Positions 4,171-55,920 of a DNA stretch of 64,000 bases are shown here, piece by piece (within the stretch, counting starts at the first letter, position 1; each line of letters starts with the position of its first letter). This stretch comes from a virus (taxonomy: Duplodnaviria; Heunggongvirae; Uroviricota; Caudoviricetes). Where the stretch lies: the IMG/VR virus record IMGVR_UViG_3300046004_001633, positions 36,792 through 100,791 of that record, one strand, 5' to 3'. Under the pieces are notes generated by a model. That model was given only the letters and a program-made list of their open reading frames with translations, had not been told where the DNA came from and did not search any database. Position numbers and translations under genes: made by a program.

Positions 4171-4226
4171 TGTCTTCTTAATTACTCTTATATAATAAGA
4201 AATAAATCAATTGAATCCAACCTTTT
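4171..4226 (-). promoter_or_regulatory. sigma70-like promoter motif TTGGAT-N17-TATTAT inside the tRNA cluster
   Basis: Minus strand: TTGGAT (4220..4215), 17-nt spacer, TATTAT (4197..4192). Shares the AGAAAT spacer signature with 8 other copies. Confidence 0.5.
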
Positions 4227-4242
4227 CGGAAACTTTTTTGAG

Positions 4243-4312
4243 TATAAGGTAAGAATCGAACTTACACTATTAGTTTTGCAGACTAACCGACCACCCCAAT
4301 CAACTTATACAA
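4243..4312 (-). tRNA. tRNA-Cys (anticodon GCA)
   Basis: Acceptor GTATAAG/CTTATAC. Anticodon stem TTAGT/ACTAA, loop CTGCAAA. T-arm GTAAG-TTCGATT-CTTAC. Weak D-stem. Confidence 0.5.
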
Positions 4313-4315
4313 TTG

Positions 4316-4388
4316 TGGACAGAGAGGGAATTGAACCCGCGACACCTAGAGCTTCAATCTAGTGCTCTACCAACTGAGCTACCTGTCC
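4316..4388 (-). tRNA. tRNA-Phe (anticodon GAA)
   Basis: GGACAGG-TA-GCTC-AGTTGGTAGA-GCAC. Anticodon stem CTAGA/TCTAG, loop TTGAAGC. T-loop TTCAATT. Confidence 0.85.
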
Positions 4389-4456
4389 TTCTTCGGGGAG
4401 GACTTGGCTGAGGTATCCTAACGGTTCTACCCTCAACACTCGCCTCCCGTCTTATG
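4389..4456 (-). ncRNA. GC-rich 68-nt hairpin element between tRNA-Trp and tRNA-Phe (possible tRNA remnant or small RNA)
   Basis: Minus strand GGGAGGCG...CCTCCCCG forms a long stem. No T-loop or anticodon architecture. Confidence 0.25.
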
Positions 4457-4530
4457 CACGCCTGGATGGATTCGAACCACCAACACTTGGATTTGGAATC
4501 CAATGCTCTACCAATTGGAGCTACAGACGC
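4457..4530 (-). tRNA. tRNA-Trp (anticodon CCA)
   Basis: GCGTCTG-TA-GCTC-CAATTGGTA-GAGC. Anticodon stem TTGGA/TCCAA, loop TTCCAAA. T-arm GGTGG-TTCGAAT-CCATC. Confidence 0.8.
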
Positions 4531-4574
4531 ATTTTATCCGACCTAGCTCGGATCACACATCGGATCTTTTATTG

Positions 4575-4647: not shown

Positions 4648-4652
4648 ATTAG

Positions 4653-4724: not shown

Positions 4725-4730
4725 AATTTG

Positions 4731-4804: not shown

Positions 4805-4805
4805 A

Positions 4806-4836: not shown

Positions 4837-4839
4837 GCA

Positions 4840-5140: not shown

Positions 5141-5146
5141 ATATTG

Positions 5147-6794: not shown

Positions 6795-6850
6795 TTATTA
6801 TACTATAAATATAATAAATTTTATTCTTATATCCAACCTTTTTTGTTACT
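6795..6850 (-). promoter_or_regulatory. sigma70-like promoter motif TTGGAT-N17-TATATT upstream of the tRNA cluster
   Basis: Minus strand TTGGAT (6836..6831), 17-nt spacer, TATATT (6813..6808). Confidence 0.5.
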
Positions 6851-6858
6851 TTGTTTGC

Positions 6859-7212
6859 TTATTGTGTTACAATTGTTACAAATGAATATTTTGAGGTTCC
6901 ATCTTTAGAAAAATAAATACGGGATACGAATTCATTTTCATACATGATGATCCAATACGGATCTCCTACTGAATCGGTTCCTTTTGGAAACTCAATACTT
7001 TGATCGTCTTTACTTAATACTCGCTTTAATTCTTCGCGAGCAGCATCATGTTCTGCATAGAAGAAGGATTGATTATTAAATTCTTTGTCTCGTATCACAT
7101 ACCATTGTTCAACTGGCACTTCAGATGTTGATTTTTCTACTGTCATTATACTTTGAGCGTTAACAGCTACGGTAGCTAGAAACATTGACAATGTTAAAAT
7201 TAATTTCTTCAT
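6859..7212 (-). CDS. secreted protein with Bacteroidota-type signal peptide
   Basis: N-terminus MKKLILTLSMFLATVAVNAQS (Ala-x-Ala/Gln cleavage typical of Bacteroidota exported proteins). 117 aa. Confidence 0.6.
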   Translation of the reverse strand: MKKLILTLSMFLATVAVNAQSIMTVEKSTSEVPVEQWYVIRDKEFNNQSFFYAEHDAAREELKRVLSKDDQSIEFPKGTDSVGDPYWIIMYENEFVSRIYFSKDGTSKYSFVTIVTQ

Positions 7213-11376: not shown

Positions 11377-11898
11377 TTAACGGGTAATTCCTAATTGTTC
11401 CAATGTCTTTGGCGTGTAATCAACTTGCTCACATGATACTCCGTGGTATCTACGATCAACACGCTTAAATATAGTGAAGCCCATAATGGTTATTTGCTTC
11501 ATTACAATATTTTCATGAATATGGCCGTGAATGATGCGTGGTACGCGGTGTTCTAACTCCATCGGGTGCACTGGGCAATGAGATAACCAAATGCCTTTAT
11601 ATCGTGTTAAACCACTAACAGATTGAACATACTTCATCAACTCCAGAATATCTCTTGGTAGATCATGATTTCCTAACACAACCTTTTTCATTCCGTTTAG
11701 TCTGGATAACAATGGATACGGTTTAGCCGATTCCATTGTTACATCACCTAGGATATATGTTAGGTCTTGTTTTTTAACTACACTGTTCCATTGGGTAATG
11801 ATGTGCTCATCATGTTCCTCTACTGTAGCAAAGCCACGTTTCAATGCCATGTTAACATGACCAAAATGTAGATCTGCTATAAATCTTACTTGTGCCAT
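11377..11898 (-). CDS. calcineurin-like phosphoesterase (candidate 2',3'-phosphatase of the RNA repair cassette)
   Basis: DLHFGH, GDV, GNHD and GHIHE metallophosphatase motifs. 173 aa. Same fold as the phosphatase domain of Clostridium thermocellum Pnkp. Confidence 0.6.
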   Translation of the reverse strand: MAQVRFIADLHFGHVNMALKRGFATVEEHDEHIITQWNSVVKKQDLTYILGDVTMESAKPYPLLSRLNGMKKVVLGNHDLPRDILELMKYVQSVSGLTRYKGIWLSHCPVHPMELEHRVPRIIHGHIHENIVMKQITIMGFTIFKRVDRRYHGVSCEQVDYTPKTLEQLGITR

Positions 11899-11920
11899 TC
11901 TTTTTCTTTATAATAAGAAA

Positions 11921-12151
11921 TTAATCGGCAATATCCAAATCTATATCAGGAATTGTTTCGCAAAACATAAAATGAGTTCCTGATTGAATAACTATATCAG
12001 CTCCACACCATTGTTGGAACATTTCTATGTATTCTCTGCGAGGAGCAGTGTCAATGCGTTCAGCAAAGTGATGTATTAGTTTTTGGTGTAGCACATGATA
12101 TGCTACGTCGTTGTGTGTTATGATGTTACCTAGCATAGCTCTGGAATACAC
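11921..12151 (-). CDS. hypothetical protein
   Basis: 76 aa. Overlaps the next ORF by 26 nt. Confidence 0.35.
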   Translation of the reverse strand: MYSRAMLGNIITHNDVAYHVLHQKLIHHFAERIDTAPRREYIEMFQQWCGADIVIQSGTHFMFCETIPDIDLDIAD

Positions 12152-14397: not shown

Positions 14398-16461
14398 TTA
14401 TTTTGCAATTTCCAAAAACTTTTGATTTATTGTCTTTGCGATATCAACCATACTATCAGGTCTAATAAATTTAGAGTCCTGACCATACATTGTTTTAAAG
14501 TTTCGACGATCACTATCATATATATTTTGCTCATATATAAAATAACTAATGATGTTCATACCAATTTCTCGCATATCACCAATTACCTTTCTAGTAAATA
14601 CCACACCATCATAGACACTGCCTGTTCCATGGACCGGAGTAGGAGCTCCATCTGAGTAATTAATAAAAATTAGTTCATCCCCTTTAGCATCTGCTCGGAG
14701 ATCCTTTTCTATACTTTTAAAAGACAGACCTTCTGGTGTGCAACCAAATGTGGATAGATATTTAAAGTAATTACGAATCTTGCTTATTTTATCATGAGCT
14801 GAATCATATGCATATAAGGTAACACATCTTTCAACCCCGCCAGTTTGTGAATCAGTTCCGCGCAATGATATTTGTACCCGGATGCCGGTCGTCATTGATG
14901 CTGCTTGGGCAATTGCTACTGCACTAGTCATGGCTTGCTCTAACTTGTTTCCATGCATCGACCCAGATGCATCAATTGATATATGGATAAAATAATTCTT
15001 GAATCTATCAGTAACTATTCGGTGAAACACATTAGCATTATCAAAACCCAATTGAGCTACTAGTCGACGATCGATCTTTCCGGCTCCTAGTCGGGTTGAC
15101 TTAAGAGTCCTATCTGTGTTTCTCATTTGCAATTTGTTACCAAGCTGTTTACCTAATATTAGGCCTCTAGTAACAGCATCAGTCATCTTGATTATATCAC
15201 GCATATTATATGAATCTGTAGCGTAATTGCCATTCATTATCTCTGCAGATCGACTAGTAAACAAACTAGGCATCGATGAAATGACTCCTGGTGTTAGTTT
15301 CTTGATAACAACTGTAGTGATCGGATTATATTTACCATCTGGGCTAGTATTAATATCGCGGGTTTCTGTACCAGAATCGCGCATTGCATTAACCAATCGC
15401 GATTGAGCTTTTGATAACTTACCGGTTTTCTTTTGTTCTCCATTAATGAATTCTCGCTGAGCTTCAATAACTTTTTCTAGCTTTGCTTTATCTCGATCCG
15501 AAAGTTCCGGGGTATCATTAGTTTCATCATCGTCACCATCCCCGTCTTCCTCATCATCAGGCTCACCATCCCCAGCTCCGCCTGGTAGTATATCTAAATC
15601 ATTGCCACCTTTTTTATTGTCTGCATCATTGCCGGCTTCATATACCTTTTGTAATTCTTCAAGCTCAGTAGCCAACACCGCTGCAGCAACAATTTTATAT
15701 ACCTCACACGATAACATTAATGCATCGATAGTCGATTTTAATCTGCTGATATTCCCTAAATCGATTAAGTTCCATACATCTCGTAGTTTGGATAAAGAAT
15801 CCAATTGTCGATTTGCATTCGTAAAGTTAATGAGATGGAACATATAACAATCCCAATCTTCTTTAACCTTCACCTTACTAATTAATGCAGTATCAATAAT
15901 TTTATCATTGAAGTATTTATTATACATTGCTTCGTAATACATTCGATATCCTGGAGCAGATGTATATACGGTATAATCAATACGGCGATCTTCAATCCAA
16001 TTCAATATATCTTTAATGATACCGTATTTCTTTTCATTTAATGTCACAGGATCGATCTCGGTGTTGTTCACTATGCTAGCCATTTTAGTTCCAGCTAAGG
16101 TATATGCTTTTCCACCAGTTGGTGTTTTAAACAAACTAAAATCAGTATATGCAATATGAGAACCTTCATGCAATGCTAATCCAACAGCTGGGTCAAAGTT
16201 AGTACCATCTAATTTAGTACCAATTGTTACGGAGGCGCCATCAGTATAACTAGAATCATTGTTTTGAAATACTACAGGTATTTGTTTGCCTGTAACGATA
16301 TTAACGAAATTACCAATTGCTCGTTGAGCTGCTGCTAATTTAGTATAATCGACTGTGTTACCTACTTTAAAGCTAACATCGAAATCTCGATCTAACCAAA
16401 AACTAGATGCATATTTCTGAAATGCCTTCCCTGCTACGTATGTTGTTTTAATCTTTGCCAT
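14398..16461 (-). CDS. cobT: CobT-like protein with C-terminal vWA domain
   Basis: 687 aa. Central acidic tract PDDEEDGDGDDDETND as in aerobic cobaltochelatase CobT. C-terminal MIDAS motif DASGSM. Confidence 0.6.
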   Translation of the reverse strand: MAKIKTTYVAGKAFQKYASSFWLDRDFDVSFKVGNTVDYTKLAAAQRAIGNFVNIVTGKQIPVVFQNNDSSYTDGASVTIGTKLDGTNFDPAVGLALHEGSHIAYTDFSLFKTPTGGKAYTLAGTKMASIVNNTEIDPVTLNEKKYGIIKDILNWIEDRRIDYTVYTSAPGYRMYYEAMYNKYFNDKIIDTALISKVKVKEDWDCYMFHLINFTNANRQLDSLSKLRDVWNLIDLGNISRLKSTIDALMLSCEVYKIVAAAVLATELEELQKVYEAGNDADNKKGGNDLDILPGGAGDGEPDDEEDGDGDDDETNDTPELSDRDKAKLEKVIEAQREFINGEQKKTGKLSKAQSRLVNAMRDSGTETRDINTSPDGKYNPITTVVIKKLTPGVISSMPSLFTSRSAEIMNGNYATDSYNMRDIIKMTDAVTRGLILGKQLGNKLQMRNTDRTLKSTRLGAGKIDRRLVAQLGFDNANVFHRIVTDRFKNYFIHISIDASGSMHGNKLEQAMTSAVAIAQAASMTTGIRVQISLRGTDSQTGGVERCVTLYAYDSAHDKISKIRNYFKYLSTFGCTPEGLSFKSIEKDLRADAKGDELIFINYSDGAPTPVHGTGSVYDGVVFTRKVIGDMREIGMNIISYFIYEQNIYDSDRRNFKTMYGQDSKFIRPDSMVDIAKTINQKFLEIAK

Positions 16462-16569: not shown

Positions 16570-17340
16570 TTAAAATGGCATATTGTTAACCGTATCTGGT
16601 TCGGTACCGACACTAAATATATCTTTCTCAACCGTTGCGATATGTTTCTGGATAATTTGTTTAACAAAAGTCCTTTCAGAATCAGATCCTCCCGATGCAT
16701 CAAAGAATGGAATGATTGCTACCTCAGACGCCTCAGCTAATGTAAACCCATCTGCTAGCAACTCACATACTCTAACAGTCATACGAGTTGATACCATAGT
16801 CGTTAACTTGCCTTCTTCAGAACGCCATTCTTTACGGGTTGCATCAGCAATGTCAGCTACTGAGTGAATCAATGTGGCACTAACTTGTTTGCCATATCGA
16901 TGCTTCAATAATGCTTCTTCGCGTTCCAATGTAAGGATATCAACCTCAATGATTTCGAAACGATCCATTAATGCTCTATCTATTACACGAGTTGATGTGT
17001 ACTCAGTACCAATATTGGCTGTTGCAATAAATGATACGCCCGATGCAACATGTATTGTCGGAGAGTTAACATCTTCATCTAATCGAAGATATCTTTGTCC
17101 TTCATCTAATACTGGCATTAAAATATTCCATGCTTCTGGGTGTGCTCGGGATAATTCATCTAAAAGTATTACGGCATTCTCTGTTTTGATTGCCTTAACA
17201 AAGGCTGATTCATCGAATGATGTCTGTCCATCTTTGAAATGTGTATTACCAATCAATGTAGATCTAGGATCTTGTGTTGCCCCTAGGTTAAAATAGAAGA
17301 ATGGTCTCTTACTTTCAATTTTAACTTTAAATTTTTCCAT
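16570..17340 (-). CDS. cobS: CobS/MoxR-like AAA+ ATPase, C-terminal half (Walker B and sensor regions)
   Basis: VILLDELSRAHPEAWNILMPVLDE (Walker B region) and FIATANIGTEY...IDRALMDRFEII (sensor/arginine-finger region). No Walker A in this ORF. Confidence 0.6.
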   Translation of the reverse strand: MEKFKVKIESKRPFFYFNLGATQDPRSTLIGNTHFKDGQTSFDESAFVKAIKTENAVILLDELSRAHPEAWNILMPVLDEGQRYLRLDEDVNSPTIHVASGVSFIATANIGTEYTSTRVIDRALMDRFEIIEVDILTLEREEALLKHRYGKQVSATLIHSVADIADATRKEWRSEEGKLTTMVSTRMTVRVCELLADGFTLAEASEVAIIPFFDASGGSDSERTFVKQIIQKHIATVEKDIFSVGTEPDTVNNMPF

Positions 17341-17398
17341 AGCTTTTTTTATTATTATAAGAAATTTATTTTATTAATCCAACCTTTTTTAGAATTGT
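17341..17398 (-). promoter_or_regulatory. sigma70-like promoter TTGGAT-N17-TATAAT in front of the ATPase C-half ORF
   Basis: Minus strand TTGGAT (17382..17377), 17-nt spacer, TATAAT (17359..17354). Confidence 0.5.
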
Positions 17399-18058
17399 AT
17401 TTACTTGCCATTTACTAAGTTCGGTAACTTTACAGATTTCAGAACGTATGCTATTATCAGTGTACATACTAATAACAACTTGTTTAATATCATTGGTTAT
17501 TATAACTTTTGGCTTGCGCCCGGAATTTGACAAATCTCTATTTTTATATATTTCACTATTACGAATACCTTCTCGTATAGCGTTTATTCGACTATCTTTA
17601 TTTTCTTTCCAATTTTTACTAATTTTTTCTGAACGCTTAAGTTTTGTTGCAGCGGACATGTTTTTATGAAAATTAGTAATTGATTTTTTAAGTTTTTCTT
17701 TCGATGTGGAACATTTCCATTTTTCAGTTGAAATTTTACTCATTTTATTTGAAAACTTATCCCAATCTGATTTAGTAAATCCTTTAAAATTTCCAACCCC
17801 GTAATTTTCTTCTGCTATATTATAGAATTTGGTACTAGTAGCGGCATCAAATTTTTTAATCCAAAATACTTCCTTATCTCGTAATTCATCATATGTGTTA
17901 CAATATTCTAATATTTCTTTTTTAAAATTTTCTTTACCGTACTTTTTTATAGCAGAGTGTAATCTTTTCCCGGATCCTAAATAATTTGGATTGTTATGTT
18001 TGTCTTTACCAATATAAGATTTACCGTTAACTAGATTAGTTGTTTTATATACCACCAT
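17366..18058 (-). CDS. GIY-YIG homing endonuclease (free-standing, Seg/I-TevI-like)
   Basis: N-terminal VVYKTTNLVNGKSYIGKD...YLGSG...EVFWIKKF matches the GIY-x10-YIG module. Lys-rich C-terminal DNA-binding region. Sits exactly between the two halves of the AAA+ ATPase gene. Confidence 0.75.
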   Translation of the reverse strand: MVVYKTTNLVNGKSYIGKDKHNNPNYLGSGKRLHSAIKKYGKENFKKEILEYCNTYDELRDKEVFWIKKFDAATSTKFYNIAEENYGVGNFKGFTKSDWDKFSNKMSKISTEKWKCSTSKEKLKKSITNFHKNMSAATKLKRSEKISKNWKENKDSRINAIREGIRNSEIYKNRDLSNSGRKPKVIITNDIKQVVISMYTDNSIRSEICKVTELSKWQVNTILKKVGLIK

Positions 18059-18121: not shown

Positions 18122-18619
18122 TTACAACTTAGTTACCGAAATAACATTTGGATCTTTTAGGAGTGTCTGGTATTCTTCTTCTGTAACTTCTAATTGGTTA
18201 ACAACTGGGACATTAACCAATGCTTTTGCGGCTTGTGTCTTACCGCTACCTGCTGGACCAACACACATTATATTCTTACCTCTAACGGCAGATCGAACTA
18301 GATACTTCCATTTGATATCAGACATCTCTAAATCCTTTGGCTTAATTTCGTGTGAACGATTAATCAATGCCATTACTGGATCTAAAGTTACATCAACTGC
18401 TGTTTCCATTGCCGGCAGTATCTCTGCAGGAATTCCATCTGCGGATATTCTACGAGCCTTTTGGGTTTCGTGATTAAACACTAAAGCATCATTGCTAGCC
18501 TCAGCTGCGTCGATCATCGATTTTCTAAAAAGATGTGTGATGTCTTCTCCGGTGCTTACTTCAAATACTAATTTACCAGATAAACTTGTGGTAATTGTTC
18601 CATACTGTTTGTTATTCAT
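18122..18619 (-). CDS. cobS: CobS/MoxR-like AAA+ ATPase, N-terminal half (Walker A)
   Basis: Walker A GPAGSGKT 37 aa before the stop. Continuation of the AAA+ domain is found in ORF 16570..17340. Confidence 0.6.
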   Translation of the reverse strand: MNNKQYGTITTSLSGKLVFEVSTGEDITHLFRKSMIDAAEASNDALVFNHETQKARRISADGIPAEILPAMETAVDVTLDPVMALINRSHEIKPKDLEMSDIKWKYLVRSAVRGKNIMCVGPAGSGKTQAAKALVNVPVVNQLEVTEEEYQTLLKDPNVISVTKL

Positions 18620-18678
18620 AGCTCTTTATTTTATATTATTATAATAAGAAATAAAAAACTAATATCCAACCTTTATTG
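18620..18678 (-). promoter_or_regulatory. sigma70-like promoter TTGGAT-N17-TATTAT
   Basis: Minus strand TTGGAT (18669..18664), 17-nt spacer, TATTAT (18646..18641). Confidence 0.5.
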
Positions 18679-19752
18679 TAACTTTTTCACGGAAGTTCCA
18701 TCATCATATATTACAATTACAATGCCTCGATACTCTTCAGTAACTAGTTGTCCTAATAGGTTGATAGTTCTAACTATGAATTTATGTGGACGGTTGTCGA
18801 CTGAGATAGGACCATATTGTTTGAAGTTGCCATCATAGTCAACCTGTGTTAATCGGTAATAGTTTATGGCTGCCGGTGCATCAGTATCAACAAAATTATA
18901 ATCTAATAACTGAGTACTATTCCCAGCACCAGTTGTCATGTTTATAACATCCTTCTCGGTAAAGTCTCCGGTGGTTGTTCGTTCTAATATAAAGTGACTC
19001 GAGTTGTGTTCGGAAGCAGTCTGCCATTTTAATACATTGTACTCAGAATATTTTGTTCCTGTGAATTCAGTTAATTCAACCGGTAACGAATAAACTCTGA
19101 CTAATTCGATGTTATCTATCCACCATTCTTCTCCAGCCGAATTTACTCTACAAAATAAATCTATAGCTACTTGTGTTATTCCGGTTGGTAAGTATAGAGA
19201 TATAAATGTTGGGCCTGTAGTACTAGCACCTGCAGGAGCTTGGTATAAATCGCCAGTCGGAGCAGCAGAGTTTGTATAAGACCCATTTGCTGTATGATTA
19301 ATGGATCCTGTTGATGTATACGGCCATGATGCGTTAGCATTTCCTGTTATCCTAAGTTCGGAAATATAAGTAGCTCCTCCATTAGTTGATACTTGCACAT
19401 CAACAAAGTCTGCGACATCAACGCCTTTAGTTGTTGCCGTTGATGTAAATGAATGTGAAGCTAATCTAAATTTGAGTTGGTATTGTGATGTTGCACTTAA
19501 CCCAGTAACATTTGGCATCGAATACCAATCCTGTTCAGTACCAGACGCTCCATTGCCACTTCCATATATTACGGCACTCGTATTAGATGAAACTGATACA
19601 TTCGTTGCCCAAGTAGCTGTTGGCACTCCGAACCACCAACCAGCTGTTAAATAATTTGTGGAAGATGCTTCCATAAAATCATACTCAATTACTGTTTGGG
19701 CATGGATTGATATGTTAAATAATAAACATAGAGATAGTATTAACTTTTTCAT
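18673..19752 (-). CDS. secreted protein with signal peptide and C-terminal T9SS sorting domain
   Basis: N-terminus MKKLILSLCLLFNISIHAQ. C-terminal ~80 aa (...YRLTQVDYDGNFKQYGPISV...IVRTINLLGQLV...IVIVIYDDGTSVKKLQ) matches the Bacteroidota Por-secretion CTD pattern. Confidence 0.65.
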   Translation of the reverse strand: MKKLILSLCLLFNISIHAQTVIEYDFMEASSTNYLTAGWWFGVPTATWATNVSVSSNTSAVIYGSGNGASGTEQDWYSMPNVTGLSATSQYQLKFRLASHSFTSTATTKGVDVADFVDVQVSTNGGATYISELRITGNANASWPYTSTGSINHTANGSYTNSAAPTGDLYQAPAGASTTGPTFISLYLPTGITQVAIDLFCRVNSAGEEWWIDNIELVRVYSLPVELTEFTGTKYSEYNVLKWQTASEHNSSHFILERTTTGDFTEKDVINMTTGAGNSTQLLDYNFVDTDAPAAINYYRLTQVDYDGNFKQYGPISVDNRPHKFIVRTINLLGQLVTEEYRGIVIVIYDDGTSVKKLQ

Positions 19753-34833: not shown

Positions 34834-34880
34834 ATAATTCTTTTTATTAATATAATTAAATTATTTCATTAATCCAAATT
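34834..34880 (-). promoter_or_regulatory. sigma70-like promoter TTGGAT-N17-TATATT
   Basis: Minus strand TTGGAT (34877..34872), 17-nt spacer, TATATT (34854..34849). Upstream of the ColD-like gene. Confidence 0.45.
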
Positions 34881-34885
34881 GAATT

Positions 34886-35503: not shown

Positions 35504-35504
35504 A

Positions 35505-38126: not shown

Positions 38127-38130
38127 AAAT

Positions 38131-40272: not shown

Positions 40273-40892
40273 AGTGTGTTATAATAATTATTTTGTCGTA
40301 TTTGTCGTTCTATTGTCTTTGCATGATACAATGAATACGATTCTTCCATTGGTAATTGTGCAAATGTTTGAATACCAGTTAACTTTTCGTGTACCTTGTT
40401 CTCCCACTGAATCGACGGATGATTCTTATAGATTCTTCCTTGCCAATCCGGCCAATTAATCCAACCCTCACTATTAACACGCCATCCCCACTTTTTAATG
40501 TGGTCTGCAGTTAGATCAGAAACCGTGTTAACTCTTGGCACCCATATCATATCAACGCCGTCATTTGCACTTAATATAGCAGGTAAGGCTTCTATAATAG
40601 GAGTACATGGAATTTCATCTGCATCTATTTGGAATATATAATCTCCGGTGCAAAGTCTAGTTAATTTATTTTTCCAATCCGCAAAGTTTCCTTCGAATTT
40701 ACCTTTATGCCATGCAAACTCTCCATTAATGGAATGCGATCTTAAAAATGCTTCGATTTCAGAATCTCCATTTGTTTCATCATATAAAACCGTAATTGAG
40801 TCTTGAGCTCTTTTATGTTTTAAAAGAAATGCAATGAGTCTCTGTATTTCCATGAACTCATTGCATACTGTAATTGCGTAACTTATCTTCAT
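40269..40892 (-). CDS. glycosyltransferase family 2
   Basis: KISYAITVCNEFMEIQRLIAF N-terminus, DADE. Confidence 0.5.
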   Translation of the reverse strand: MKISYAITVCNEFMEIQRLIAFLLKHKRAQDSITVLYDETNGDSEIEAFLRSHSINGEFAWHKGKFEGNFADWKNKLTRLCTGDYIFQIDADEIPCTPIIEALPAILSANDGVDMIWVPRVNTVSDLTADHIKKWGWRVNSEGWINWPDWQGRIYKNHPSIQWENKVHEKLTGIQTFAQLPMEESYSLYHAKTIERQIRQNNYYNTL

Positions 40893-40921
40893 ACTATATT
40901 ATAATGAATTTAATTGATAAA

Positions 40922-42172
40922 TCAAATCTTTTGAAGCTTAGGTAAAGATAGAGTTGGTAATTTCAATTCAACTGATTTAGGAATACTAGTTAATCCGCCA
41001 TCAACAATACTCAATACAGTTTCATATGTTTTTGCAATTGCCGTACGAGTAAATGCAGTATTCACAAAGTATCGTTGGCGCTTACCTAACTCTAACCAAG
41101 TTTTATAATTCTTAATAACTTCTTGCATCATCTTACCGGCATATCCATAATCAACACTAAACCACTTTGCATCGCCAATTAAGAATTGATTTTGTGCTGT
41201 TGCGTGTATTGGTGATAATGTTCCTGGAAGTGCACATATGAAATCCTTCTTAAGGAAGTCTGCTTGTCCTGAATAATGTGGTGCTAGGATAGGTTTACCG
41301 GTTGTTGCAAATTCTAATAGAGGTCTTCCAAATCCTTCTGCTTTAGTAAATGATACCATTGCTTTAACTTTGGAATGATTATACAATGCATTCATTTCAT
41401 CATCAGATAATTCGCCATGAATCAAATATACATTTGGTAATTTAGCTTTGCCGAACATTGCTCCAACTTGATTGATCTTTCCTTCAATTTCCATGCGATC
41501 CATAACACTATATGTTGCTCCGGAGCATTTCATAATTAAAGCAGGTTGATTCTTTGTGTCCTTAAATGTATTAAAGAAACAATGCACCATACCTCCGATA
41601 TTTTTTCGGTCTTCCCCTACTTGGCCTTGCAACCAATGTCCAACTGATAGAAATGCCCATGATTCTGGTATTTCATCTAATTGAGCTATCGGTTCTTTAA
41701 TTTCAGAGGTAGTATACACTGATTCATCGAAATATTCAGGTATCACTTGCAAGTTGCATGTAATTGCTTTATCATGCTTCTTAGCTGTCTCTACAAACAC
41801 TGATTTTGTAAACTCACTAGGAACAATTACTAGGTGCATTGCATTTAGGTTATCGATCCAGTCTACTGGGCAGATATCACCTTCGGTACCTGCTGTTACT
41901 CCAATATTGTATTTTCCTACTGCTTGGAATTCATTTGGCACTGATATTTGAACCCAAACATCTGGTTGTTCCGTTAACGGTAATGGAATTATTCTTAACT
42001 GTAAATCCGTTGAAATTGGATATGTCATTGGGGTATGTCCCCATGGCAATGAAACTAATTTAACATCCCATTCAGAACCTCGTTGTTCTATAATGTTTGT
42101 AATAACTTCTCTTGCATGATGTCCGTAACCTGATTGTGTTGCTACTGGACTGGCTATAACTACTTTTCTCAT
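40922..42172 (-). CDS. glycosyltransferase, GT-B fold
   Basis: 416 aa. C-terminal KAEGFGRPLLEFATTGKPILAPHYSG is an EX7E-like GT4 motif. Confidence 0.5.
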   Translation of the reverse strand: MRKVVIASPVATQSGYGHHAREVITNIIEQRGSEWDVKLVSLPWGHTPMTYPISTDLQLRIIPLPLTEQPDVWVQISVPNEFQAVGKYNIGVTAGTEGDICPVDWIDNLNAMHLVIVPSEFTKSVFVETAKKHDKAITCNLQVIPEYFDESVYTTSEIKEPIAQLDEIPESWAFLSVGHWLQGQVGEDRKNIGGMVHCFFNTFKDTKNQPALIMKCSGATYSVMDRMEIEGKINQVGAMFGKAKLPNVYLIHGELSDDEMNALYNHSKVKAMVSFTKAEGFGRPLLEFATTGKPILAPHYSGQADFLKKDFICALPGTLSPIHATAQNQFLIGDAKWFSVDYGYAGKMMQEVIKNYKTWLELGKRQRYFVNTAFTRTAIAKTYETVLSIVDGGLTSIPKSVELKLPTLSLPKLQKI

Positions 42173-43662
42173 TCTGCTACTATTCCTGTTCGTTCATATT
42201 TTACTGGTTCAACTTTATTTACTGTGAATAAAGGTCTTCTTTCTCTATGCATTGCAAATAAATCATTAAACATGGAAATCATTTTGTTACCCATCTTCTC
42301 GGCAGTTAATCCATTAGCTAAAGCCCATTGTCGGCCTTCAAAACCACAAGCAGCCCTATTTTCTTCTGTCATGTCCCACCACGATCTTAATGCGGCTGCT
42401 ACATCTTCATATTTAACTCGGTCATCAAAGATATATGGTGTTTGGGGTGATCCTTGAAGGCTTCGGTTGCTAGGAAATACTGGTTTAACCCAAGATCCAT
42501 GTTTCTTGTATTTACCGGTGTGATTCGTTGCAAATTCTCCATCAAATCGAAGCCATTCGCCATTCTCATCTTCAAAGCCACATTGATCTTGTAAACCACC
42601 AGTAACATTGTTAACGATTGGCGTTCCTGCAAGAATGGCTTCTGTTGAACTAAGTCCCCAACCTTCGTTGCTTCCAATATTCACAACTACATCAGCAACA
42701 TTATACATTGCATTAAGATCCGGTGCTGACAGCTTTTGTTCTGAGAATATAATTTTACAATTGGGCGCCAATGTTTTCCATACTGCAATTAGATCCGTTC
42801 CGTTTTCATCTACTGGTTGTGTATGCATTAATAATGCTACACGGTCTTGTTGATCTGCTGGTAACCTATCTACGAATGTTTTGAATGCTAATATCAAATC
42901 GCCTGGCTGTTTTCTTCTAATATTGCGATTATTCCACATTACTATGAAATCAACCTTATTTGTTTCTTTGATTTGTTTTAACATTGAAACATGTAATGGA
43001 TCACTTGATGATAATGGTTTGAATATGTTGTGATTCAATCCGTGAGGAACATAACCTGTTATAATATCATTCCATTTCTTATCCATCGGCAATGTATCTG
43101 ATTCATCATAGTTAATTACGCCAAAACCATTCTGTTTAAGCACTTCTCTATGAATATTGTCTGACTGTTTGCTTATTCCCATAATCATATCGCAACTACC
43201 GTAAAAAGGTGCGTTCCACATTGGATAAGGTAGGTCATCCCAAATAGAGTAATATGTAATAGGAATTCCGAATGTAGTTTTAATTTCGTGTTCAATTGCA
43301 TACAACCAAGTCCAGTAACGAGGATCTGTAAAGTGTAGGATTGCATCTGGCTGTTCTTGATTGATAATAGCAAATAAGATATTTCTATCGCCATATCCAT
43401 TCCATGGAATCAACTTAACTGATGCATCTTCAATTCCAGTCTCTCGAATAATATCCTGAGATAAATCAAATGCTTGTCCTGCGTCTGGATGATTTAATGC
43501 TCCGCCTAATTGAACCCAATCAAATTCTTTAACGGTATTCAAAATGATTTCTTTGCTGACCGTTCCGATTCCAGATGGTAATCTAAAATCATCGCCTAAA
43601 AGAAGTATTTTCTTTTTTTGTGGCTTGTTGGGGTCAATTTTTTGTAACTTTGGTAACTCCAT
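42169..43662 (-). CDS. glycosyltransferase, GT4-like
   Basis: 497 aa. NEGWGLSSTEAILAGTPIV GT1/GT4 signature. Confidence 0.55.
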   Translation of the reverse strand: MELPKLQKIDPNKPQKKKILLLGDDFRLPSGIGTVSKEIILNTVKEFDWVQLGGALNHPDAGQAFDLSQDIIRETGIEDASVKLIPWNGYGDRNILFAIINQEQPDAILHFTDPRYWTWLYAIEHEIKTTFGIPITYYSIWDDLPYPMWNAPFYGSCDMIMGISKQSDNIHREVLKQNGFGVINYDESDTLPMDKKWNDIITGYVPHGLNHNIFKPLSSSDPLHVSMLKQIKETNKVDFIVMWNNRNIRRKQPGDLILAFKTFVDRLPADQQDRVALLMHTQPVDENGTDLIAVWKTLAPNCKIIFSEQKLSAPDLNAMYNVADVVVNIGSNEGWGLSSTEAILAGTPIVNNVTGGLQDQCGFEDENGEWLRFDGEFATNHTGKYKKHGSWVKPVFPSNRSLQGSPQTPYIFDDRVKYEDVAAALRSWWDMTEENRAACGFEGRQWALANGLTAEKMGNKMISMFNDLFAMHRERRPLFTVNKVEPVKYERTGIVAE

Positions 43663-45866: not shown

Positions 45867-46772
45867 TTACTTATTGATATTCAAAAACATTCCTGCTCCG
45901 CCTGCCATTGTGGTTGGCAACTTACCATCCCAAGCTTGGGCCTTTAAATATTCAATATAGGTAGGTGTAAGTTGAGATTGCTTAATTTTAATTGATAATG
46001 CTGCTGCGTTTGCATTAATAACCATCTCAGCACTGTCTGCCCTTGCTACTGCTACTTTACGCTTACCTTCAGCAATTGCTGTCAATGCTTGTTGCTCAGA
46101 TGCTTCTGCTTGCTGGATTGCTCTTGTTTTAGAAATAATTGCTTCCTGCAACGCTTCCGGTGGTGTGATATTAGTTCTTAATTGTGATACATTGAACCAT
46201 TTAGTTAGTCTCAAGTTACATTCTGCAACAATTGATGCCTCAAATGCTTGTCTATGACCAAAAATGCTATCAATTTCCCATGTATTGGCTACGTCATTAA
46301 CTGCTCCGATAATTGCATTTTTAAGCCAACCTTGTTCTACGTCTTTAGTATCTAATCGTAGATTCACAAACATATCACCAATTGCATCTTCTTTTAGGGA
46401 ATAGTTAAAGGTAGGTTTAATAGTTGCTGGGAATCCACCTTTAGTAATTACTTGCTGATCATCATATTCGATGTGTTGCTGATACAATGGGAATTCTTTT
46501 AATTGTTCCGTCCATGAATTGTAAACTACCCAACCTGTCTTGTATTGATAATTTGTTGCTCCTCGTTGCGACCCAACTAAACTAATTTTCAATCCTTTGT
46601 AACCATTATCAACTTTTTCGAATGAATATGGTTGAATAAAAGCTATAACTACTCCAACGACTGCAATAATAATTCCGTTTCGGATACCGGCTGCACTGTC
46701 ATCATTTAATGCGTTAAAAAATTTAATTCCTCCTACGATAAGGAATACTGCGATAATAATACCTGTAATCAT
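45867..46772 (-). CDS. SPFH/band-7 (prohibitin/stomatin-like) membrane protein
   Basis: N-terminal TM helix. SPFH-like core. Long Ala/Gln-rich coiled-coil tail (QQAEASEQQALTAIAEGKRKVAVARADSAE). Confidence 0.55.
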   Translation of the reverse strand: MITGIIIAVFLIVGGIKFFNALNDDSAAGIRNGIIIAVVGVVIAFIQPYSFEKVDNGYKGLKISLVGSQRGATNYQYKTGWVVYNSWTEQLKEFPLYQQHIEYDDQQVITKGGFPATIKPTFNYSLKEDAIGDMFVNLRLDTKDVEQGWLKNAIIGAVNDVANTWEIDSIFGHRQAFEASIVAECNLRLTKWFNVSQLRTNITPPEALQEAIISKTRAIQQAEASEQQALTAIAEGKRKVAVARADSAEMVINANAAALSIKIKQSQLTPTYIEYLKAQAWDGKLPTTMAGGAGMFLNINK

Positions 46773-46990
46773 TTTTCTTTTGTTTTAATTGGTTTTGTAA
46801 AATAACTAATTATAATTTGTACTTGCCAGACACTATAAACTAATGCAAAAAAGCTGGCACCTAATTGCAATATTGAATCGACTTCCCGACTAATAACATA
46901 ATCGAAGAATAGGTTCATAATAAAAACATAAACAATTGTTAATGCTAATACGCCCCATCCCGAAATTTTAAATTTAAAAATGTCTTTCAT
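46769..46990 (-). CDS. small 2-TM membrane protein, cotranslated partner of the SPFH gene
   Basis: 73 aa, two hydrophobic helices, 4-nt overlap with the SPFH start. Confidence 0.4.
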   Translation of the reverse strand: MKDIFKFKISGWGVLALTIVYVFIMNLFFDYVISREVDSILQLGASFFALVYSVWQVQIIISYFTKPIKTKEK

Positions 46991-47036
46991 ATCTTATTTT
47001 TTATATAATATAAGAAATCATTTTGATATATCCAAG
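46991..47036 (-). promoter_or_regulatory. sigma70-like promoter TTGGAT-N17-TATATT
   Basis: Minus strand TTGGAT (47035..47030), 17-nt spacer, TATATT (47012..47007). Confidence 0.5.
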
Positions 47037-47254
47037 AATTCTGGTGGAATTTTATACTCTTTTAAGTAAATATCAATTAGGTCTTTAGTTTTAGCCAAGT
47101 CCTGTTCAAAGGTGCCTTTAAGTCGACATCTTACAATGCGTTTGATTAAATCAAATTCATAACTGTTTAACGCCCACTCATCTGCAAACTTGTAAAGACT
47201 GTCTTTGCCTCGATAATGTGATTGTGTGTTTATTGTGCTCATATTGTTTATCAT
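47018..47254 (-). CDS. hypothetical small protein
   Basis: 78 aa. Confidence 0.35.
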   Translation of the reverse strand: MINNMSTINTQSHYRGKDSLYKFADEWALNSYEFDLIKRIVRCRLKGTFEQDLAKTKDLIDIYLKEYKIPPEFLDISK

Positions 47255-52861: not shown

Positions 52862-54050
52862 TGTAACCTTGTTGTTTTAATAAATACTTGCAATATTCTA
52901 ATTCGTGCCAAACATTAATTTCTTGTTGCATATCATTAGCAATTATATATGCTTCCATTTGTCGACCGTAATCTGCAATTGCTGCAAAGTTATAATCTCG
53001 TGTATATTCTTCATCGCATACCACTGTTAATGTATATACCGCATCTTTTACCGAAAATGGTGTATACATTCGATCTGCCGGAATAAATTCTGGGAATGAT
53101 CTAAAATTTGGAAATACTACATCACATCCGAATGCCGTAGATTCCAATACGGTCCATGATACATAGTCTTGAAGTGAACTATTGAATTGAACTTTAGCAG
53201 TTGCTAATTCATAGTAATATTCTTCTTTTGTTAGATTAGCTAACAATTTAAATCTAGGAACGCGCGCTGCTAATGCCGTCATTGCTTCAATCACACCAGG
53301 AACCATTGATTTAAATGATTTACCGGAAGTTGTCACGTGCCACACATAATCTGGATTATCACTTAAAAATAGCTCAGCTACTTCAAGCATAAAGAACGGA
53401 TTCTTTTCTTTGTCTAGACGACTAGAATATACCACTTTGTTTTGCTTTTTAATCAAACCATGTTGTAATGCATCAGAATAATTAGGCAATTTAGCTAAAG
53501 TCATATCTAAATGCAATGGCAATGACACAACATGAATTGGAGCATTAAATCCAGCTTCTCGTAATTGTTCTTTATGAATAGTAGATCCCACAAATATACC
53601 TGTCATTCGGTTATCTAGTCCCAATTCATAATGACGCATCCATTGACGCATAGGCCAAGTAAAATCATATTCATCAACACTTTGTGCATGAAGCATTGCA
53701 TAAACTTTAACTTGGATACCATATAAATCTAATGCATACCAAATTGCATCCATACCTGGAGTCCAATAATCTTGCAAGAAGATTACATCGCCATCCTTAA
53801 CCTGATCGGTATTGATCATATCTAAGAAATTGCTACACTGACTCATAGCAAATTTACCTCGGCCAACGGCATCTAATACAGCTCCAACTTTAATTTGCTG
53901 GTCTGGATCAAATTCTCCTGGAATATCAATAAATTCTAATTCGCCGGCCGTTTCGTATGGAGCAAATGTTGCTGGCATCCATTCCTTACTCAATTGGTAA
54001 GTATATCGAGCTTTAAGGGGCTCGAGCCCAAAGTAAAATACTTTTCTCAT
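52854..54050 (-). CDS. GT-B-fold glycosyltransferase-like protein adjacent to dpdA
   Basis: YSSRLDKEKNPFFMLEVAELF and ESTAFGCDVVFPN resemble GT4 R/K-pocket and EX7E regions. Function unknown. Confidence 0.35.
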   Translation of the reverse strand: MRKVFYFGLEPLKARYTYQLSKEWMPATFAPYETAGELEFIDIPGEFDPDQQIKVGAVLDAVGRGKFAMSQCSNFLDMINTDQVKDGDVIFLQDYWTPGMDAIWYALDLYGIQVKVYAMLHAQSVDEYDFTWPMRQWMRHYELGLDNRMTGIFVGSTIHKEQLREAGFNAPIHVVSLPLHLDMTLAKLPNYSDALQHGLIKKQNKVVYSSRLDKEKNPFFMLEVAELFLSDNPDYVWHVTTSGKSFKSMVPGVIEAMTALAARVPRFKLLANLTKEEYYYELATAKVQFNSSLQDYVSWTVLESTAFGCDVVFPNFRSFPEFIPADRMYTPFSVKDAVYTLTVVCDEEYTRDYNFAAIADYGRQMEAYIIANDMQQEINVWHELEYCKYLLKQQGYNE

Positions 54051-54051
54051 A

Positions 54052-54414
54052 TTAAAATTCTTTGCTTCTTTTAATTACTGCTCCATTTTCCCAATCTTCC
54101 CAAACTTCTACTTTGTATAAAGCCGGGAATTCTTCTAATAACCATTCTCCGATCATTTCACACGACATTGCATCAAATTCCAAAACACTAGTTAATTCTC
54201 TGGAAAATTGATTTCTAAGCCCTTTTTGAATTTTACGATTCAATAAAATAAATTCTTCATCTCTGTCAGTATGAGTTACTTTAGCATAACAACGAAATCC
54301 AAACATATGACGATGTCTATCTGCGAGGAATGCTACTTCTGGAAATACTTCTTTGGCATCTGGCCAACAATGAAACCCTTCAATACTAAAACTAACTATT
54401 ATACTATATTTCAT
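54052..54414 (-). CDS. PTPS/QueD-like T-fold protein (second paralogue)
   Basis: FHCWPD...ADRHRHMFGF resembles the Cys...H-x-H Zn site of 6-pyruvoyl-tetrahydropterin synthase-like proteins. Confidence 0.35.
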   Translation of the reverse strand: MKYSIIVSFSIEGFHCWPDAKEVFPEVAFLADRHRHMFGFRCYAKVTHTDRDEEFILLNRKIQKGLRNQFSRELTSVLEFDAMSCEMIGEWLLEEFPALYKVEVWEDWENGAVIKRSKEF

Positions 54415-55040
54415 ACTTTATTTATTTTTTTTAGTTGTTGCCTTTTTGTCTGAGCGGCTTGCATTTTAATAATAGTCTCATTTGAAAATATTCTACCCTT
54501 CAAGGTATCAGCTCTTTTTTGATTTGATTCAGCTGTTTGAATTTTTCCTAAATGAGCTTCTCTATTTTTTTGTTTAGATTCCACTGTATGTGATTTGCCT
54601 AACATTGGTGATGGCTTATCTAAATGGGCTTCTCTATTTTTTTGTTTAGATTCCACTGTATGTATTCTTTGTTTACTAGCTTCTCCAATTTTACGTTTAT
54701 GTTCTGCCGATAATTTCCTACTACTCATTTTTTTAGCAAATATACATTTAACACGTTCATATTCTCTCGATGATATTTTATAATTTCGTATCATATTTGC
54801 AGATCCTTGTTTATTACACATTGCCCAATAAGCATAAAATAATTTATCATTATCTGGGTACATTTCAACAAGTAATTTATGTACTATAAAATGTTGTCGA
54901 GCTGTTAGTTTAACTAAATTTTCTTTATCATTAGTACCACCCATACATTTAGGAATAATATGATGTTTTTCGCTATACCCTAATAATTTTTGATTATGGG
55001 CTATAGCAATAATAGAATCATGTATTCTTTGGTAATTCAT
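54411..55040 (-). CDS. HNH homing endonuclease with NUMOD3 repeats
   Basis: HHIIPKCMGGTNDKENLVKLTARQHFIVH HNH core. Tandem HTVESKQKNREAHL-type NUMOD3 units. Confidence 0.7.
   Translation of the reverse strand: MNYQRIHDSIIAIAHNQKLLGYSEKHHIIPKCMGGTNDKENLVKLTARQHFIVHKLLVEMYPDNDKLFYAYWAMCNKQGSANMIRNYKISSREYERVKCIFAKKMSSRKLSAEHKRKIGEASKQRIHTVESKQKNREAHLDKPSPMLGKSHTVESKQKNREAHLGKIQTAESNQKRADTLKGRIFSNETIIKMQAAQTKRQQLKKINKV
54555..54675. repeat. direct ~72-bp DNA repeat encoding NUMOD3 units
   Basis: ttctctatttttttgtttagattccactgtatgt occurs twice, about 72 bp apart. Confidence 0.55.
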
Positions 55041-55438
55041 ATTAAACTATTTGCTATTAATTGTTTGTATTTAGTGGTCGACCAACCATGGTCTCTGTTT
55101 AGATAGTGAATTGGAATATTCAAATCGTCGCCGGTAAATGGCTTATCTATATAATCATCTCCTAGGAATCTTACATCGAGTTTACCTTTTGCTAAAGCCT
55201 CATATAACTCAGCCTCAGTTTGATATAAAAATATAAAATCTACTTGCTTGAGTGATCCTAATATTTTATAACGATCGCTCCAATGTAAAATTGGCTTTAA
55301 TTTTTCAGGTCTTTCAAGACTTGGATCTTCGTGTAGACAAACTATAAGATAATCACAATGCTTTTTACATTCAGTAAACATTGCAATATATCCCGGATGA
55401 ATAACATCAAAGTTACCTGCTATAACGCCACGCTTCAT
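55037..55438 (-). CDS. cytidylyltransferase-like nucleotidyltransferase (HxGH family)
   Basis: GVIAGNFDVIHPGYIAMF matches the G-x-FD-x-x-H-x-G-H motif of glycerol-3-P cytidylyltransferase / RfaE-II / PPAT-type enzymes. Confidence 0.55.
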   Translation of the reverse strand: MKRGVIAGNFDVIHPGYIAMFTECKKHCDYLIVCLHEDPSLERPEKLKPILHWSDRYKILGSLKQVDFIFLYQTEAELYEALAKGKLDVRFLGDDYIDKPFTGDDLNIPIHYLNRDHGWSTTKYKQLIANSLI

Positions 55439-55875
55439 AGTTCTTCATCAAATTTATATGAGTCGGGGGTTGTTTCTTGCATATGCATCTTAGCAATCAT
55501 ATGACAACGATACCAACCAGCATCTATACTCACTGTATCGGTTGCTTTTAGCAGTTGTAATGCGTCATCCTGAATTCTATAAATAATGTGGCATCGATTA
55601 ACCAAATCAGTGGAAATGCCCTTTAAAGTAGCTTTATTGGCTTCTATTGTTACTACTGCGTGTGTGGTATCTAATATTTCGCGGATTGCTTTGAAATGCT
55701 TACTATCTTTAGATTCAATCATGGAAGCGATATACTCAATAGTGAAATAATAATGAGGATATTCGTTAAGATCATCTACATTAATTCCTTCTCCATATTC
55801 TCTAATAAATAGAGTCATCATATCAGTGTAGCGGCCTTCTACTTCTCTTCCGCGCCATTGTTGTTTTCCGTACAT
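55435..55875 (-). CDS. hypothetical protein
   Basis: 146 aa. Confidence 0.45.
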   Translation of the reverse strand: MYGKQQWRGREVEGRYTDMMTLFIREYGEGINVDDLNEYPHYYFTIEYIASMIESKDSKHFKAIREILDTTHAVVTIEANKATLKGISTDLVNRCHIIYRIQDDALQLLKATDTVSIDAGWYRCHMIAKMHMQETTPDSYKFDEEL

Positions 55876-55920
55876 ATAACTTTTTTATTTAATATAATGA
55901 ATTTATTTCTATTATCCAAA
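55876..55920 (-). promoter_or_regulatory. sigma70-like promoter TTGGAT-N17-TATATT
   Basis: Minus strand TTGGAT (55919..55914), 17-nt spacer, TATATT (55896..55891). Between the DNA polymerase stop and the next gene. Confidence 0.5.

Follow-up and report, generated by a model that had tools for sequence, protein, structure and literature searches.

The 64-kilobase (kb) window analyzed here (64,000 nucleotides (nt); positions 36,792 to 100,791 of IMG/VR virus record IMGVR_UViG_3300046004_001633, Caudoviricetes) contains a real promoter-like family, TTGGAT-N17-TATWWT, in about 20 copies, which we call class A. Based on comparison with related phages, we put the probability that these are promoters for a phage-encoded sigma factor at roughly 0.5. 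The family is biased in position and strand, is conserved at orthologous sites, is practically absent from Bacteroidota DNA and, in public viral contigs, is tied exclusively to one sigma orthogroup.

Exact matches to TTGGAT-N17-TATWWT numbered 10 in the window, against 0.30 expected from dinucleotide-preserving shuffles (shuffle maximum 3). All 10 lie on the minus strand, as do all plausible genes and all 17 tRNA genes. A sequence-only reading of this DNA had listed nine such sites; each was confirmed at its minus-strand coordinates with a 17-nt spacer, while a tenth exact copy, at 11938..11910 and 5' of gene 11898..11377, had been overlooked. The placement upstream of start codons or tRNA blocks given in that reading held, with distances slightly different from its 15-45 nt: the ATG follows the end of the -10 hexamer by 11-21 nt at eight strong sites and by 48 nt at the site at 6836, and the site at 4220 lies 49 nt 5' of tRNA-Leu with no start codon after it. 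Because this last copy precedes a tRNA block, the motif cannot be a translation signal. The aligned consensus of the 10 copies is aaaaGG-TTGGAT-N9-aAATTTCT-TATwwT-Aw, of which the extended plus-strand consensus given earlier is the reverse complement. The -10 hexamer is TATTAT, TATATT or TATAAT, the spacer is exactly 17 nt in each copy, GG stands directly 5' of TTGGAT in 6/10 copies and TTTCT directly 5' of the -10, likewise, in 6/10. The conserved unit spans only ~37 nt, with unrelated flanks.

A position weight matrix (PWM) built from the 10 sites returned 21 coding-strand matches of at least 8 bits in the window and 0 on the opposite strand. The additional members have the -35 boxes TTGGTT, TTTGAT, TTTGAA or TAGGAT. 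Some copies stand after hairpin and T-run terminators, and several overlap just the last codons of the upstream gene. The motif is not equally frequent inside genes, a pattern that the earlier reading had named as one that would speak against it; only two weak matches, at 30725 and 31936, are truly intragenic. When the same matrix was applied to both strands of 1.26 megabases (Mb) of Bacteroidota chromosomal DNA, only 2 matches of at least 12 bits were obtained, with no enrichment 5' of host genes. The putative promoters of the window, with their PWM scores, are the following.

4192..4222, minus strand: strong class A promoter, GGTTGGAT-N17-TATTAT, 49 nt 5' of tRNA-Leu/tRNA-Met; exact match, 40.3 bits
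6808..6838, minus strand: strong class A promoter, GGTTGGAT-N17-TATATT(TA), the sole window copy with a TAnnTTTA-type -10; exact match, 38.1 bits
7228..7258, minus strand: strong class A promoter 5' of the gene for a secreted 117-amino-acid (aa) protein, 7212..6859; 15 nt to ATG, 38.4 bits
11910..11938, minus strand: strong class A promoter (the tenth copy) 5' of phosphoesterase gene 11898..11377; 11 nt to ATG, 38.9 bits
16479..16509, minus strand: strong class A promoter after a hairpin and T-run, 5' of 687-aa gene 16461..14398; 17 nt to ATG, 45.1 bits
17354..17384, minus strand: strong class A promoter 5' of the C-terminal half of a split AAA ATPase gene, 17340..16570; 13 nt to ATG, 45.8 bits
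18641..18671, minus strand: strong class A promoter 5' of the N-terminal half of the split AAA ATPase gene, 18619..18122; 21 nt to ATG, 42.8 bits
34849..34877, minus strand: strong class A promoter 5' of the aminotransferase/GDP-mannose dehydratase sugar operon (34833..); 15 nt to ATG, 35.4 bits
47007..47035, minus strand: strong class A promoter 5' of gene 46990..46769, its -35 within the last codons of gene 47254..47018; 16 nt to ATG, 35.7 bits
55891..55919, minus strand: strong class A promoter over the stop codon of the DNA polymerase gene, 5' of 146-aa gene 55875..55435; 38.2 bits
61882..61910, minus strand: weaker member, TTTGAA-N17-TATATT, 5' of GTP cyclohydrolase gene 61859..61158; 14.0 bits
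45282..45312, minus strand: weaker member, GGTTGGTT-N17-TATATT, after a terminator; ATG 5 nt past the -10, a leaderless layout; 18.4 bits
44307..44335, minus strand: weaker member, TAGGAT-N17-TATAAT; ATG 5 nt past the -10; 14.5 bits
40898..40926, minus strand: weaker member, TTTGAT-N17-TATAAT; ATG 5 nt past the -10; 20.3 bits
27955..27983, minus strand: weak member, TTTGAT-N17-TATAAT; ATG 5 nt past the -10; 11.3 bits
22956..22984, minus strand: weaker member, TTGGTT-N17-TATATT; ATG 5 nt past the -10; 14.1 bits
2921..2949, minus strand: weaker member, TTGGTT-N17-TATATT, 5' of gene 2914..2525; ATG 6 nt past the -10; 16.5 bits
214..242, minus strand: weaker member, TTGGTT-N17-TATAAT, 5' of an open reading frame (ORF) running off the window end; 15.4 bits
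30697..30727, minus strand: intragenic match, GGTTGGTT-N17-TATATT, function uncertain, 95 nt to the next start; 23.2 bits

The sequence-only reading had described the family as an exact sigma-70 promoter. The -10 and the 17-nt spacer agree with this description but the -35 does not, as TTGGAT matches TTGACA at 3/6 positions (4/6 in the shifted register TGGATA, with a 16-nt spacer), and a generic sigma-70 scan of the window was not enriched (68 sites vs 80.9 in shuffles) and caught the family only in the shifted register, with 9/12 matches. The TTG-N20-TA geometry is common to Escherichia coli and Bacteroidota promoters; the real difference from the latter is the missing T-6/G-5 and, often, T-8. 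As had been claimed, the motif lacks the Bacteroidota -7 box TAnnTTTG, which was present in 0/10 strong copies, and none was found in the intergenic regions of the window. Counts of TAHHTTTG were at chance level in the window (64 vs 64.4 expected) and depleted in the early region of a relative (11 vs 20.4 expected). In the Bacteroidota loci fetched, a TAnnTTTG-type box was 5-10x enriched 5' of genes in every order tested; a Bacteroidota order devoid of this enrichment was considered as an alternative host type and rejected, all four groups tested showing it. The -33 TTTG/TTG element of sigma-ABfr promoters is represented, with TTG-N20-TA in all copies and a T before TTG in 3/10. Among 206 non-redundant members from the window and its relatives, position -6 is A or T equally and position -5 is A in 136, T in 55, G in 11 and C in 4, so that G is avoided at -5 (11/206 vs 19.6% background, P = 3.5e-9). 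In Flavobacterium johnsoniae promoters T-12, A-11, T-8, T-7, T-6 and G-5 are nearly invariant (PMC6847099).

For the sigma search, IMG/VR was scanned for the exact extended motif, followed by local phmmer with regions 2-4 of E. coli RpoD (used as a lead only). A 247-aa ORF of the sigma-70 family was found in IMGVR_UViG_3300027714_000138, amid small early-type genes and five near-identical copies of the motif. It contains Pfam Sigma70 regions 1.2, 2 and 4; its nearest NCBIfam models are those of RpoS, RpoD and RpoH, below every equivalog cut-off, and the solved proteins nearest to it are primary sigmas. The association with the motif was then measured in loci picked solely by homology to the 247-aa sigma. 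While the 39 loci with sigma orthologs of at least 53% identity contained 134 motif matches, all of them on the sigma strand (134:0 in 597 kb), the 60 loci with more distant sigmas contained 2 + 2 matches (1.07 Mb). Contig IMGVR_UViG_3300013126_000012 (159.6 kb) carries both a sigma ortholog (L376) and a region syntenic with the window (L100), in which ribonucleotide reductase (RNR) is 88%, QueE 84% and PolB 73% identical to the window proteins, with a mean of 59% identity over 14 shared proteins. Four other contigs combine the sigma with an exact match from the independent motif scan. No match to the sigma profile was obtained in the complete genome of phage Mel-JY01.

Judged by alignment, the phage sigma derives from a Bacteroidota-type primary sigma. 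Its profile scored 186 bits on a Flavobacteriales primary sigma (in L055) vs at most 148 bits on any solved sigma, and both proteins have the same short N-terminus without region 1.1 and share NLRF..VAKQYQ and KFIS(F/Y)AVW. The phage protein has a ~40-residue deletion over region 3, and its recognition helices in regions 2.4 and 4.2 are altered (WWIRQSILQ to WYVRAELQK; LTRERVRQI to VTGERARQL), which may signify altered specificity; region 4 is intact, in keeping with a -35 that is strongly conserved. Before the sigma operon, 100-330 nt 5' of sigma, lies a conserved cassette of phased A-tracts (AAAAAAGTTT repeated), TAGGAT or a perfect TTGACA, N17 and TA(T/A)(A/C)TTTA(A/T)G, often with a second TATAAT 4 nt later (L294, L296, L298-L301, L359, L366, L369, L374, L376, L378, L382). 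In many lineages the gene for a small basic protein (MAxGKKNSGF...) lies between the cassette promoter and sigma. The -10 of this operon matches the host box at 7/8 positions, and for this reason the cascade may begin there with the host holoenzyme. In sigma-bearing phages the family consists about equally of TAnnTTTA and TATWWT members, none with G at -5.

Conservation at orthologous positions was found in uncultured relatives. The promoter 5' of the 146-aa gene that follows PolB is kept in eight IMG/VR relatives and, where another gene has been inserted there, reappears as GGTTGGAT-N17-TATATT after a terminator in a truly intergenic position (L002/L005/L008). Upstream of the gp41 helicase gene, ~17-20 lineages (within L095-L174) keep only TTGnnn-N17-TATAAT while other positions drift, and the ATG begins 5-6 nt past the hexamer, at the predicted +1. 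At the same helicase position L149 and L156, which are TTTG-type lineages, have TTTGGTn-N17-TATATTTG and a 19-nt leader. Over 73 non-identical sites the hexamer-to-ATG distance is bimodal, with peaks at 5-6 nt (18 sites) and 14-20 nt. The coincidence of ATG and predicted +1 lends independent support to TATWWT as the true -10, and the short distances suggest many leaderless mRNAs.

Several relatives with ~80% RNR identity, together with Mel-JY01, use canonical TTG-N20-TAnnTTTG promoters. The family in Mel-JY01 is TTGCATA-N12/13-TTTCGTAnaTTTGTA, found at 12-13 sites in the non-structural part of the genome and at none 5' of structural genes; example record positions (PP395634.1; L094, L175-L177, L393) are 63040, 64032, 68717, 69086, 69448, 71886, 76513, 83372 and 143674. 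This family and the window motif have a common geometry and share 'ATTTC(G/T)TA', and given this common layout the window family seems to be derived from a host-type early promoter by loss of TTTG. In L103-L106 (82-87% RNR identity) another -35 signature was observed, TTGCAA or TTGCTA-N17/18-TATAGT, and each sublineage seems to have its own fixed -35 hexamer past the shared TTG. Sorting of relatives into TTTG and non-TTTG types with a loose regular expression showed no strand bias and was abandoned. A 'major paralogous domain' gene is present as well in Mel-JY01, whose deposited host is Microcystis; unlike the window phage, Mel-JY01 has AGGA-type Shine-Dalgarno-like boxes. Its promoters and this gene raise the question of whether its productive host was a member of the Bacteroidota in a non-axenic culture.

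A second promoter-like family, class B, consists of (C)ATATTTATAWWAAAG without a -35. In the window its core TATTTATA has 16 coding-strand and 3 opposite-strand occurrences, 11-31 nt before starts. Downstream of it lie the lysis cassette, GroEL, homing endonucleases and PolB. Core positions in the window are given below.

Class B core TATTTATA starts, minus strand: 58446, 48591, 45802, 43689, 29412, 25368, 18083, 14385, 6250, 3221

The motif, as ATATTTATA, precedes most structural genes in L011 and in Mel-JY01 (L175), the latter without the sigma. Class B is likely a gp55-type late promoter; since it is probably late, class A would be the non-late class. A GIY-YIG homing endonuclease gene interrupts the gene for the CobS/MoxR-like AAA ATPase, leaving two ORFs (18619..18122, 18058..17366 for the endonuclease, and 17340..16570), with a strong class A promoter of its own before each half and a class B (late-type) motif before the inserted endonuclease.

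The phage is a distant T4-like myovirus, whose nearest cultured relative is the 'Microcystis' phage Mel-JY01. PHROG scans of the window proteins identified RNR, a T4 gp43-type DNA polymerase, clamp-loader subunits, GroEL/GroES and ThyX, as well as 7-deazaguanine genes, an RNA ligase, several homing endonucleases and a large glycosylation island. The DNA polymerase shares ~30% identity with those of cyanophage T4-likes and 42.5% with that of Mel-JY01, which is syntenic with the window around the polymerase gene. No close DNA match was found among cultured phages. A 38-mer of the window had no exact counterpart in IMG/VR, and the window's own RNR was missing from the gene-position index. Uncultured IMG/VR relatives are many, with PolB 77-97% identical and RNR 79-98% identical in more than 599 matching stretches. 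The queuosine-precursor (7-deazaguanine) set at 63951..59279 includes GTP cyclohydrolase, QueD-like and QueE-like genes, and a 14-kb island of lower G+C (~30%) at 43662..29417 holds glycosyltransferases, a fucosyltransferase-like gene, a split transketolase, an aminotransferase and GDP-mannose dehydratase. Together the two suggest DNA hypermodification and/or surface-glycan remodelling. A non-coding stretch of 590 nt (3181..3773) is G+C-richer and structured-looking; within it Rfam calls a 106-nt tRNA at 3340..3445 (35.9 bits), with a long insertion or extra arm, which ARAGORN does not call. The 3' end of this tRNA, ACAGGTTCGAATCCTGTCCTGACTACA, recurs just 5' of the sigma operon in L374, L378 and L382.

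The host is, with high probability, a member of the Bacteroidota, as the sequence-only reading had proposed, and support comes from evidence other than that first given: a C-terminal domain restricted to Bacteroidota, the near absence of Shine-Dalgarno sequences, the TAnnTTTG promoters of relatives and the Bacteroidota-type sigma. The C-terminal 140 aa of the secreted 359-aa protein 19752..18673 aligned to the extreme C-termini of large chromosomal proteins, and among 185,579 species genomes the best 78 loci comprised 77 from Bacteroidota and 1 from Ignavibacteriota. The former belonged to Fluviicola and other Flavobacteriales, Saprospiraceae, Chitinophagales, Sphingobacteriales and Cytophagales. 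Metagenomic homologues of this protein number 880 and are spread over several unrelated phage types (loci compared: L014-L091). Its ~140-aa C-terminal module reads ..INYYRLxQVDxDG.. then ..NLLGQxV....G..I.IYDDGT..K; the module is perhaps a sorting or anchoring domain for which no model exists. The type IX secretion system (T9SS) tail that had been assigned to the secreted protein cannot be claimed, as NCBIfam and Pfam gave no match in the 359-aa protein, its C-terminus or three bacterial homologues. A core Shine-Dalgarno was present in just 5/83 window genes, and leaders were A-rich. Both traits agree with Bacteroidia (PMC6847099).

If a phage sigma reads class A, the programme that we infer would run in three steps. 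Class A would comprise the non-late (early/middle) promoters of a distant T4-like Bacteroidota phage, having kept the universal sigma-70-family geometry (TTG at -35, 20 nt, T-12 A-11 ... T-7) and given up the 3' half of the -7 box that is specific to Bacteroidota (T-8 T-7 T-6 G-5). Their reader would be the host core RNA polymerase with a phage sigma of ~245 aa, a strongly diverged Bacteroidota primary sigma with regions 1.2, 2 and 4 and without region 3, which the window phage would encode in its own genome, in an early-gene region outside the window. Host sigma-A would initially read a few near-host-type promoters (TAnnTTTA, phased A-tracts), including that of the sigma operon. The phage sigma, and not host sigma-A, would then read TTGGAT-N17-TATWWT before tRNA, nucleotide-metabolism, replication-accessory and sugar genes, many of these promoters being placed for a leaderless mRNA or a 5-15 nt leader. 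Finally, the separate -10-only motif ATATTTATAWWAAAG would serve late genes via a gp55-type factor. Loss of the TTTG requirement would fit the changed region 2 and missing region 3 of the phage sigma.

A number of observations weigh against this assignment. The proposal of a phage-encoded sigma in the sequence-only reading gained comparative support from relatives, but the 64-kb window itself has no sigma gene, and none was found 4-10 kb past its downstream end in the nearest relatives (L395, L400; proteins 76-92% identical), where DNA ligase and early-type small genes lie. The syntenic relative that bears the sigma is fairly distant, as its mean identity over the shared proteins indicates, and the sigma-absence test draws on one complete sigma-less genome, that of Mel-JY01. 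The promoter of the sigma operon is itself a member of the broad family that includes class A (TAGGAT or TTGACA-N17-TAnnTTTA). Shared ancestry, rather than recognition, could also explain why sigma and motif occur together. In the T4 paradigm, moreover, the host holoenzyme reads early promoters in its unmodified state, and by the same precedent class A might consist of ordinary early promoters for an unmodified host primary sigma of the sigma-ABfr type, the strong -35 TTG, conserved spacer and upstream A-tract making up for the missing TTTG and the phage sigma serving another purpose or subset. We regard this as rather unlikely. It would account for a layout homologous to the canonical Bacteroidota-type promoters of relatives (TTG-N20-TA; 'ATTTC(G/T)TA' in Mel-JY01), for the retention of A-11 and T-7, the universally flipped bases, for the TAnnTTTA form of about half the members in sigma-bearing phages, a 7/8 match to the host box, and for the presence of a promoter of this type before the sigma operon itself. 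Yet host promoters hardly vary at T-6 and G-5 (PMC6847099), whereas G-5 is actively avoided here; moreover, the motif is all but missing from the 1.26 Mb of Bacteroidota DNA and is unenriched 5' of host genes, the family is confined to the surroundings of one sigma orthogroup, and the sigma-less relative Mel-JY01 uses TTTG.

It is improbable that the host lies outside the Bacteroidota, say among the proteobacteria or cyanobacteria, and has a housekeeping sigma of the conventional sigma-70 type to which the motifs would be normal early promoters. While the TATAAT-like -10 and 17-nt spacer, the deposition of the nearest cultured relative as a Microcystis phage, the failure of hidden Markov models to detect a T9SS C-terminal domain and a helicase identity of ~40%, which leaves room for hosts in different phyla, would all be accommodated by such a host, the 77/78 Bacteroidota loci matched by the C-terminus of 19752..18673, the scarcity of core Shine-Dalgarno sequences (5/83 genes) with A-rich leaders, the canonical TAnnTTTG promoters of Mel-JY01 and of relatives at ~80% RNR identity, the derivation of the sigma of motif-bearing phages from a Bacteroidota-type primary sigma, and a -35 that matches TTGACA at only 3/6 positions would not. 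Less probable still is that the repeats are not primarily promoters but binding sites of a phage regulator, or recombination cassettes by which gene modules are shuffled, as with the promoter-early stem-loop (PeSL) cassettes of T4-type phages, and which gene conversion would keep alike. Copy-to-copy identity is indeed very high at positions that a sigma need not contact, and several copies adjoin homing-endonuclease insertions and module borders; however, only ~37 nt are conserved between unrelated flanks, the two-box architecture is strict with fixed spacing, orthologous sites conserve just the two boxes, and start codons fall exactly at the predicted +1. Cassette behaviour would in any case supplement promoter function and not replace it.

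Recognition of class A by a phage sigma would, tentatively, describe a widespread clade of aquatic T4-like Bacteroidota phages with a pared-down host primary sigma (no region 1.1, no region 3) that has shed the TTTG requirement, giving an orthogonal code, (G)GTTGGAT-N17-TATWWT with G-5 avoided, that would be poorly read by host sigma, absent from host genes and coupled to frequent leaderless mRNAs. If this is true, the phage sets its own transcription apart from that of the host by altering just two or three promoter positions. The Bacteroidota code is unlike that of other bacteria and little is understood of how the primary sigma reads TTTG; a phage version of this factor together with TTTG-less promoters would be a natural experiment pointing to the specificity residues (regions 1.2, 2.4 and 3). 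The sigma/promoter pair could also serve as an orthogonal expression system for Flavobacteriia and Bacteroides genetics. For the abundant uncultured T4-like Bacteroidota phages the data would imply a transcription programme of at least three tiers, with motif models for annotating it. Finally, as Mel-JY01 illustrates, whether promoters are of the TAnnTTTG type can help host prediction or lead it astray.

The 'moraphages', aquatic T4-related jumbo phages predicted on Flavobacteriia, count an 'RNA polymerase sigma-F factor' family among their core genes and lack an RNA polymerase of their own; the survey that describes them gives no promoter motifs and no specificity for this sigma (PMC12619734). 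Likened by traits alone, they and the window phage have in common an aquatic origin, predicted Bacteroidota hosts, T4-like core genes and glycosyltransferases (PMC12619734). In the literature, no described Bacteroidota-phage sigma paired with a TTTG-less promoter code was found. The first 50,000 nt of Tenacibaculum phage PTm1 (AP019524.1 1-50000, L093) contain a repeated ATACATA-type motif 15-30 nt 5' of many structural and replication genes, which is probably a phage-specific promoter of its own. PTm1, a cultured T4-related flavobacterial phage, was dropped as a comparator, as it shows neither class A nor class B.

With E. coli sigma-70 promoters (TTGACA-N17-TATAAT) class A shares the 17-nt spacer and a -10 that matches TATAAT at 5-6/6 positions; the +1 predicted by analogy, 7 nt past the hexamer, coincides with the ATG at leaderless sites. 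It differs in having an extra conserved GG at -37/-36 and AAATTTCT at -20 to -13. With the sigma-ABfr promoters of Bacteroidota (-33 TTTG / -7 TAnnTTTG) it shares the TTG-N20-TA geometry, T-12, A-11, T-7 and A/T-rich leaders, and the orthologues of window promoters in L149, L156, L116 and Mel-JY01 are canonical TAnnTTTG promoters. Class A differs from these in having no T-6 or G-5, and often no T-8, and in a -35, GGTTGGAT, that is far more conserved than the weak host -33. T4 early promoters and PeSL cassettes are likewise a super-consensus family with an upstream A-tract, and the placement of the motif after terminators and before tRNA, nucleotide-metabolism and replication-accessory genes is T4-like. 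Unlike T4 middle promoters (MotA/AsiA), class A keeps TTG at -35 and has no MotA-box-like TGCTT element, and its conserved unit is just ~37 nt. Appropriation of the MotA/AsiA type was rejected, since it would still require a host-type -10 and no PHROG match to MotA or AsiA homologues was obtained among the window proteins scanned. With its strict -35, class A is also unlike a T4-type late promoter (gp55), a role that ATATTTATAWWAAAG fills.

Phage-encoded sigma cascades are classical, the examples being gp28 and gp33/34 of Bacillus phage SPO1 and the late sigma gp55 of T4; a Bacteroidota-phage sigma with a TTTG-less code is what looks new. As in SPO1 and T4, a phage protein of the sigma-70 family would redirect the host core polymerase to a phage-specific code, alongside a -10-only late class. 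In contrast to those systems, the sigma here is a shortened version of the primary sigma, itself unusual, of the host, with region 4 kept and region 3 absent, the link between sigma and promoters is comparative and not biochemical, and the new code departs from that of the host mainly by dropping TTTG.

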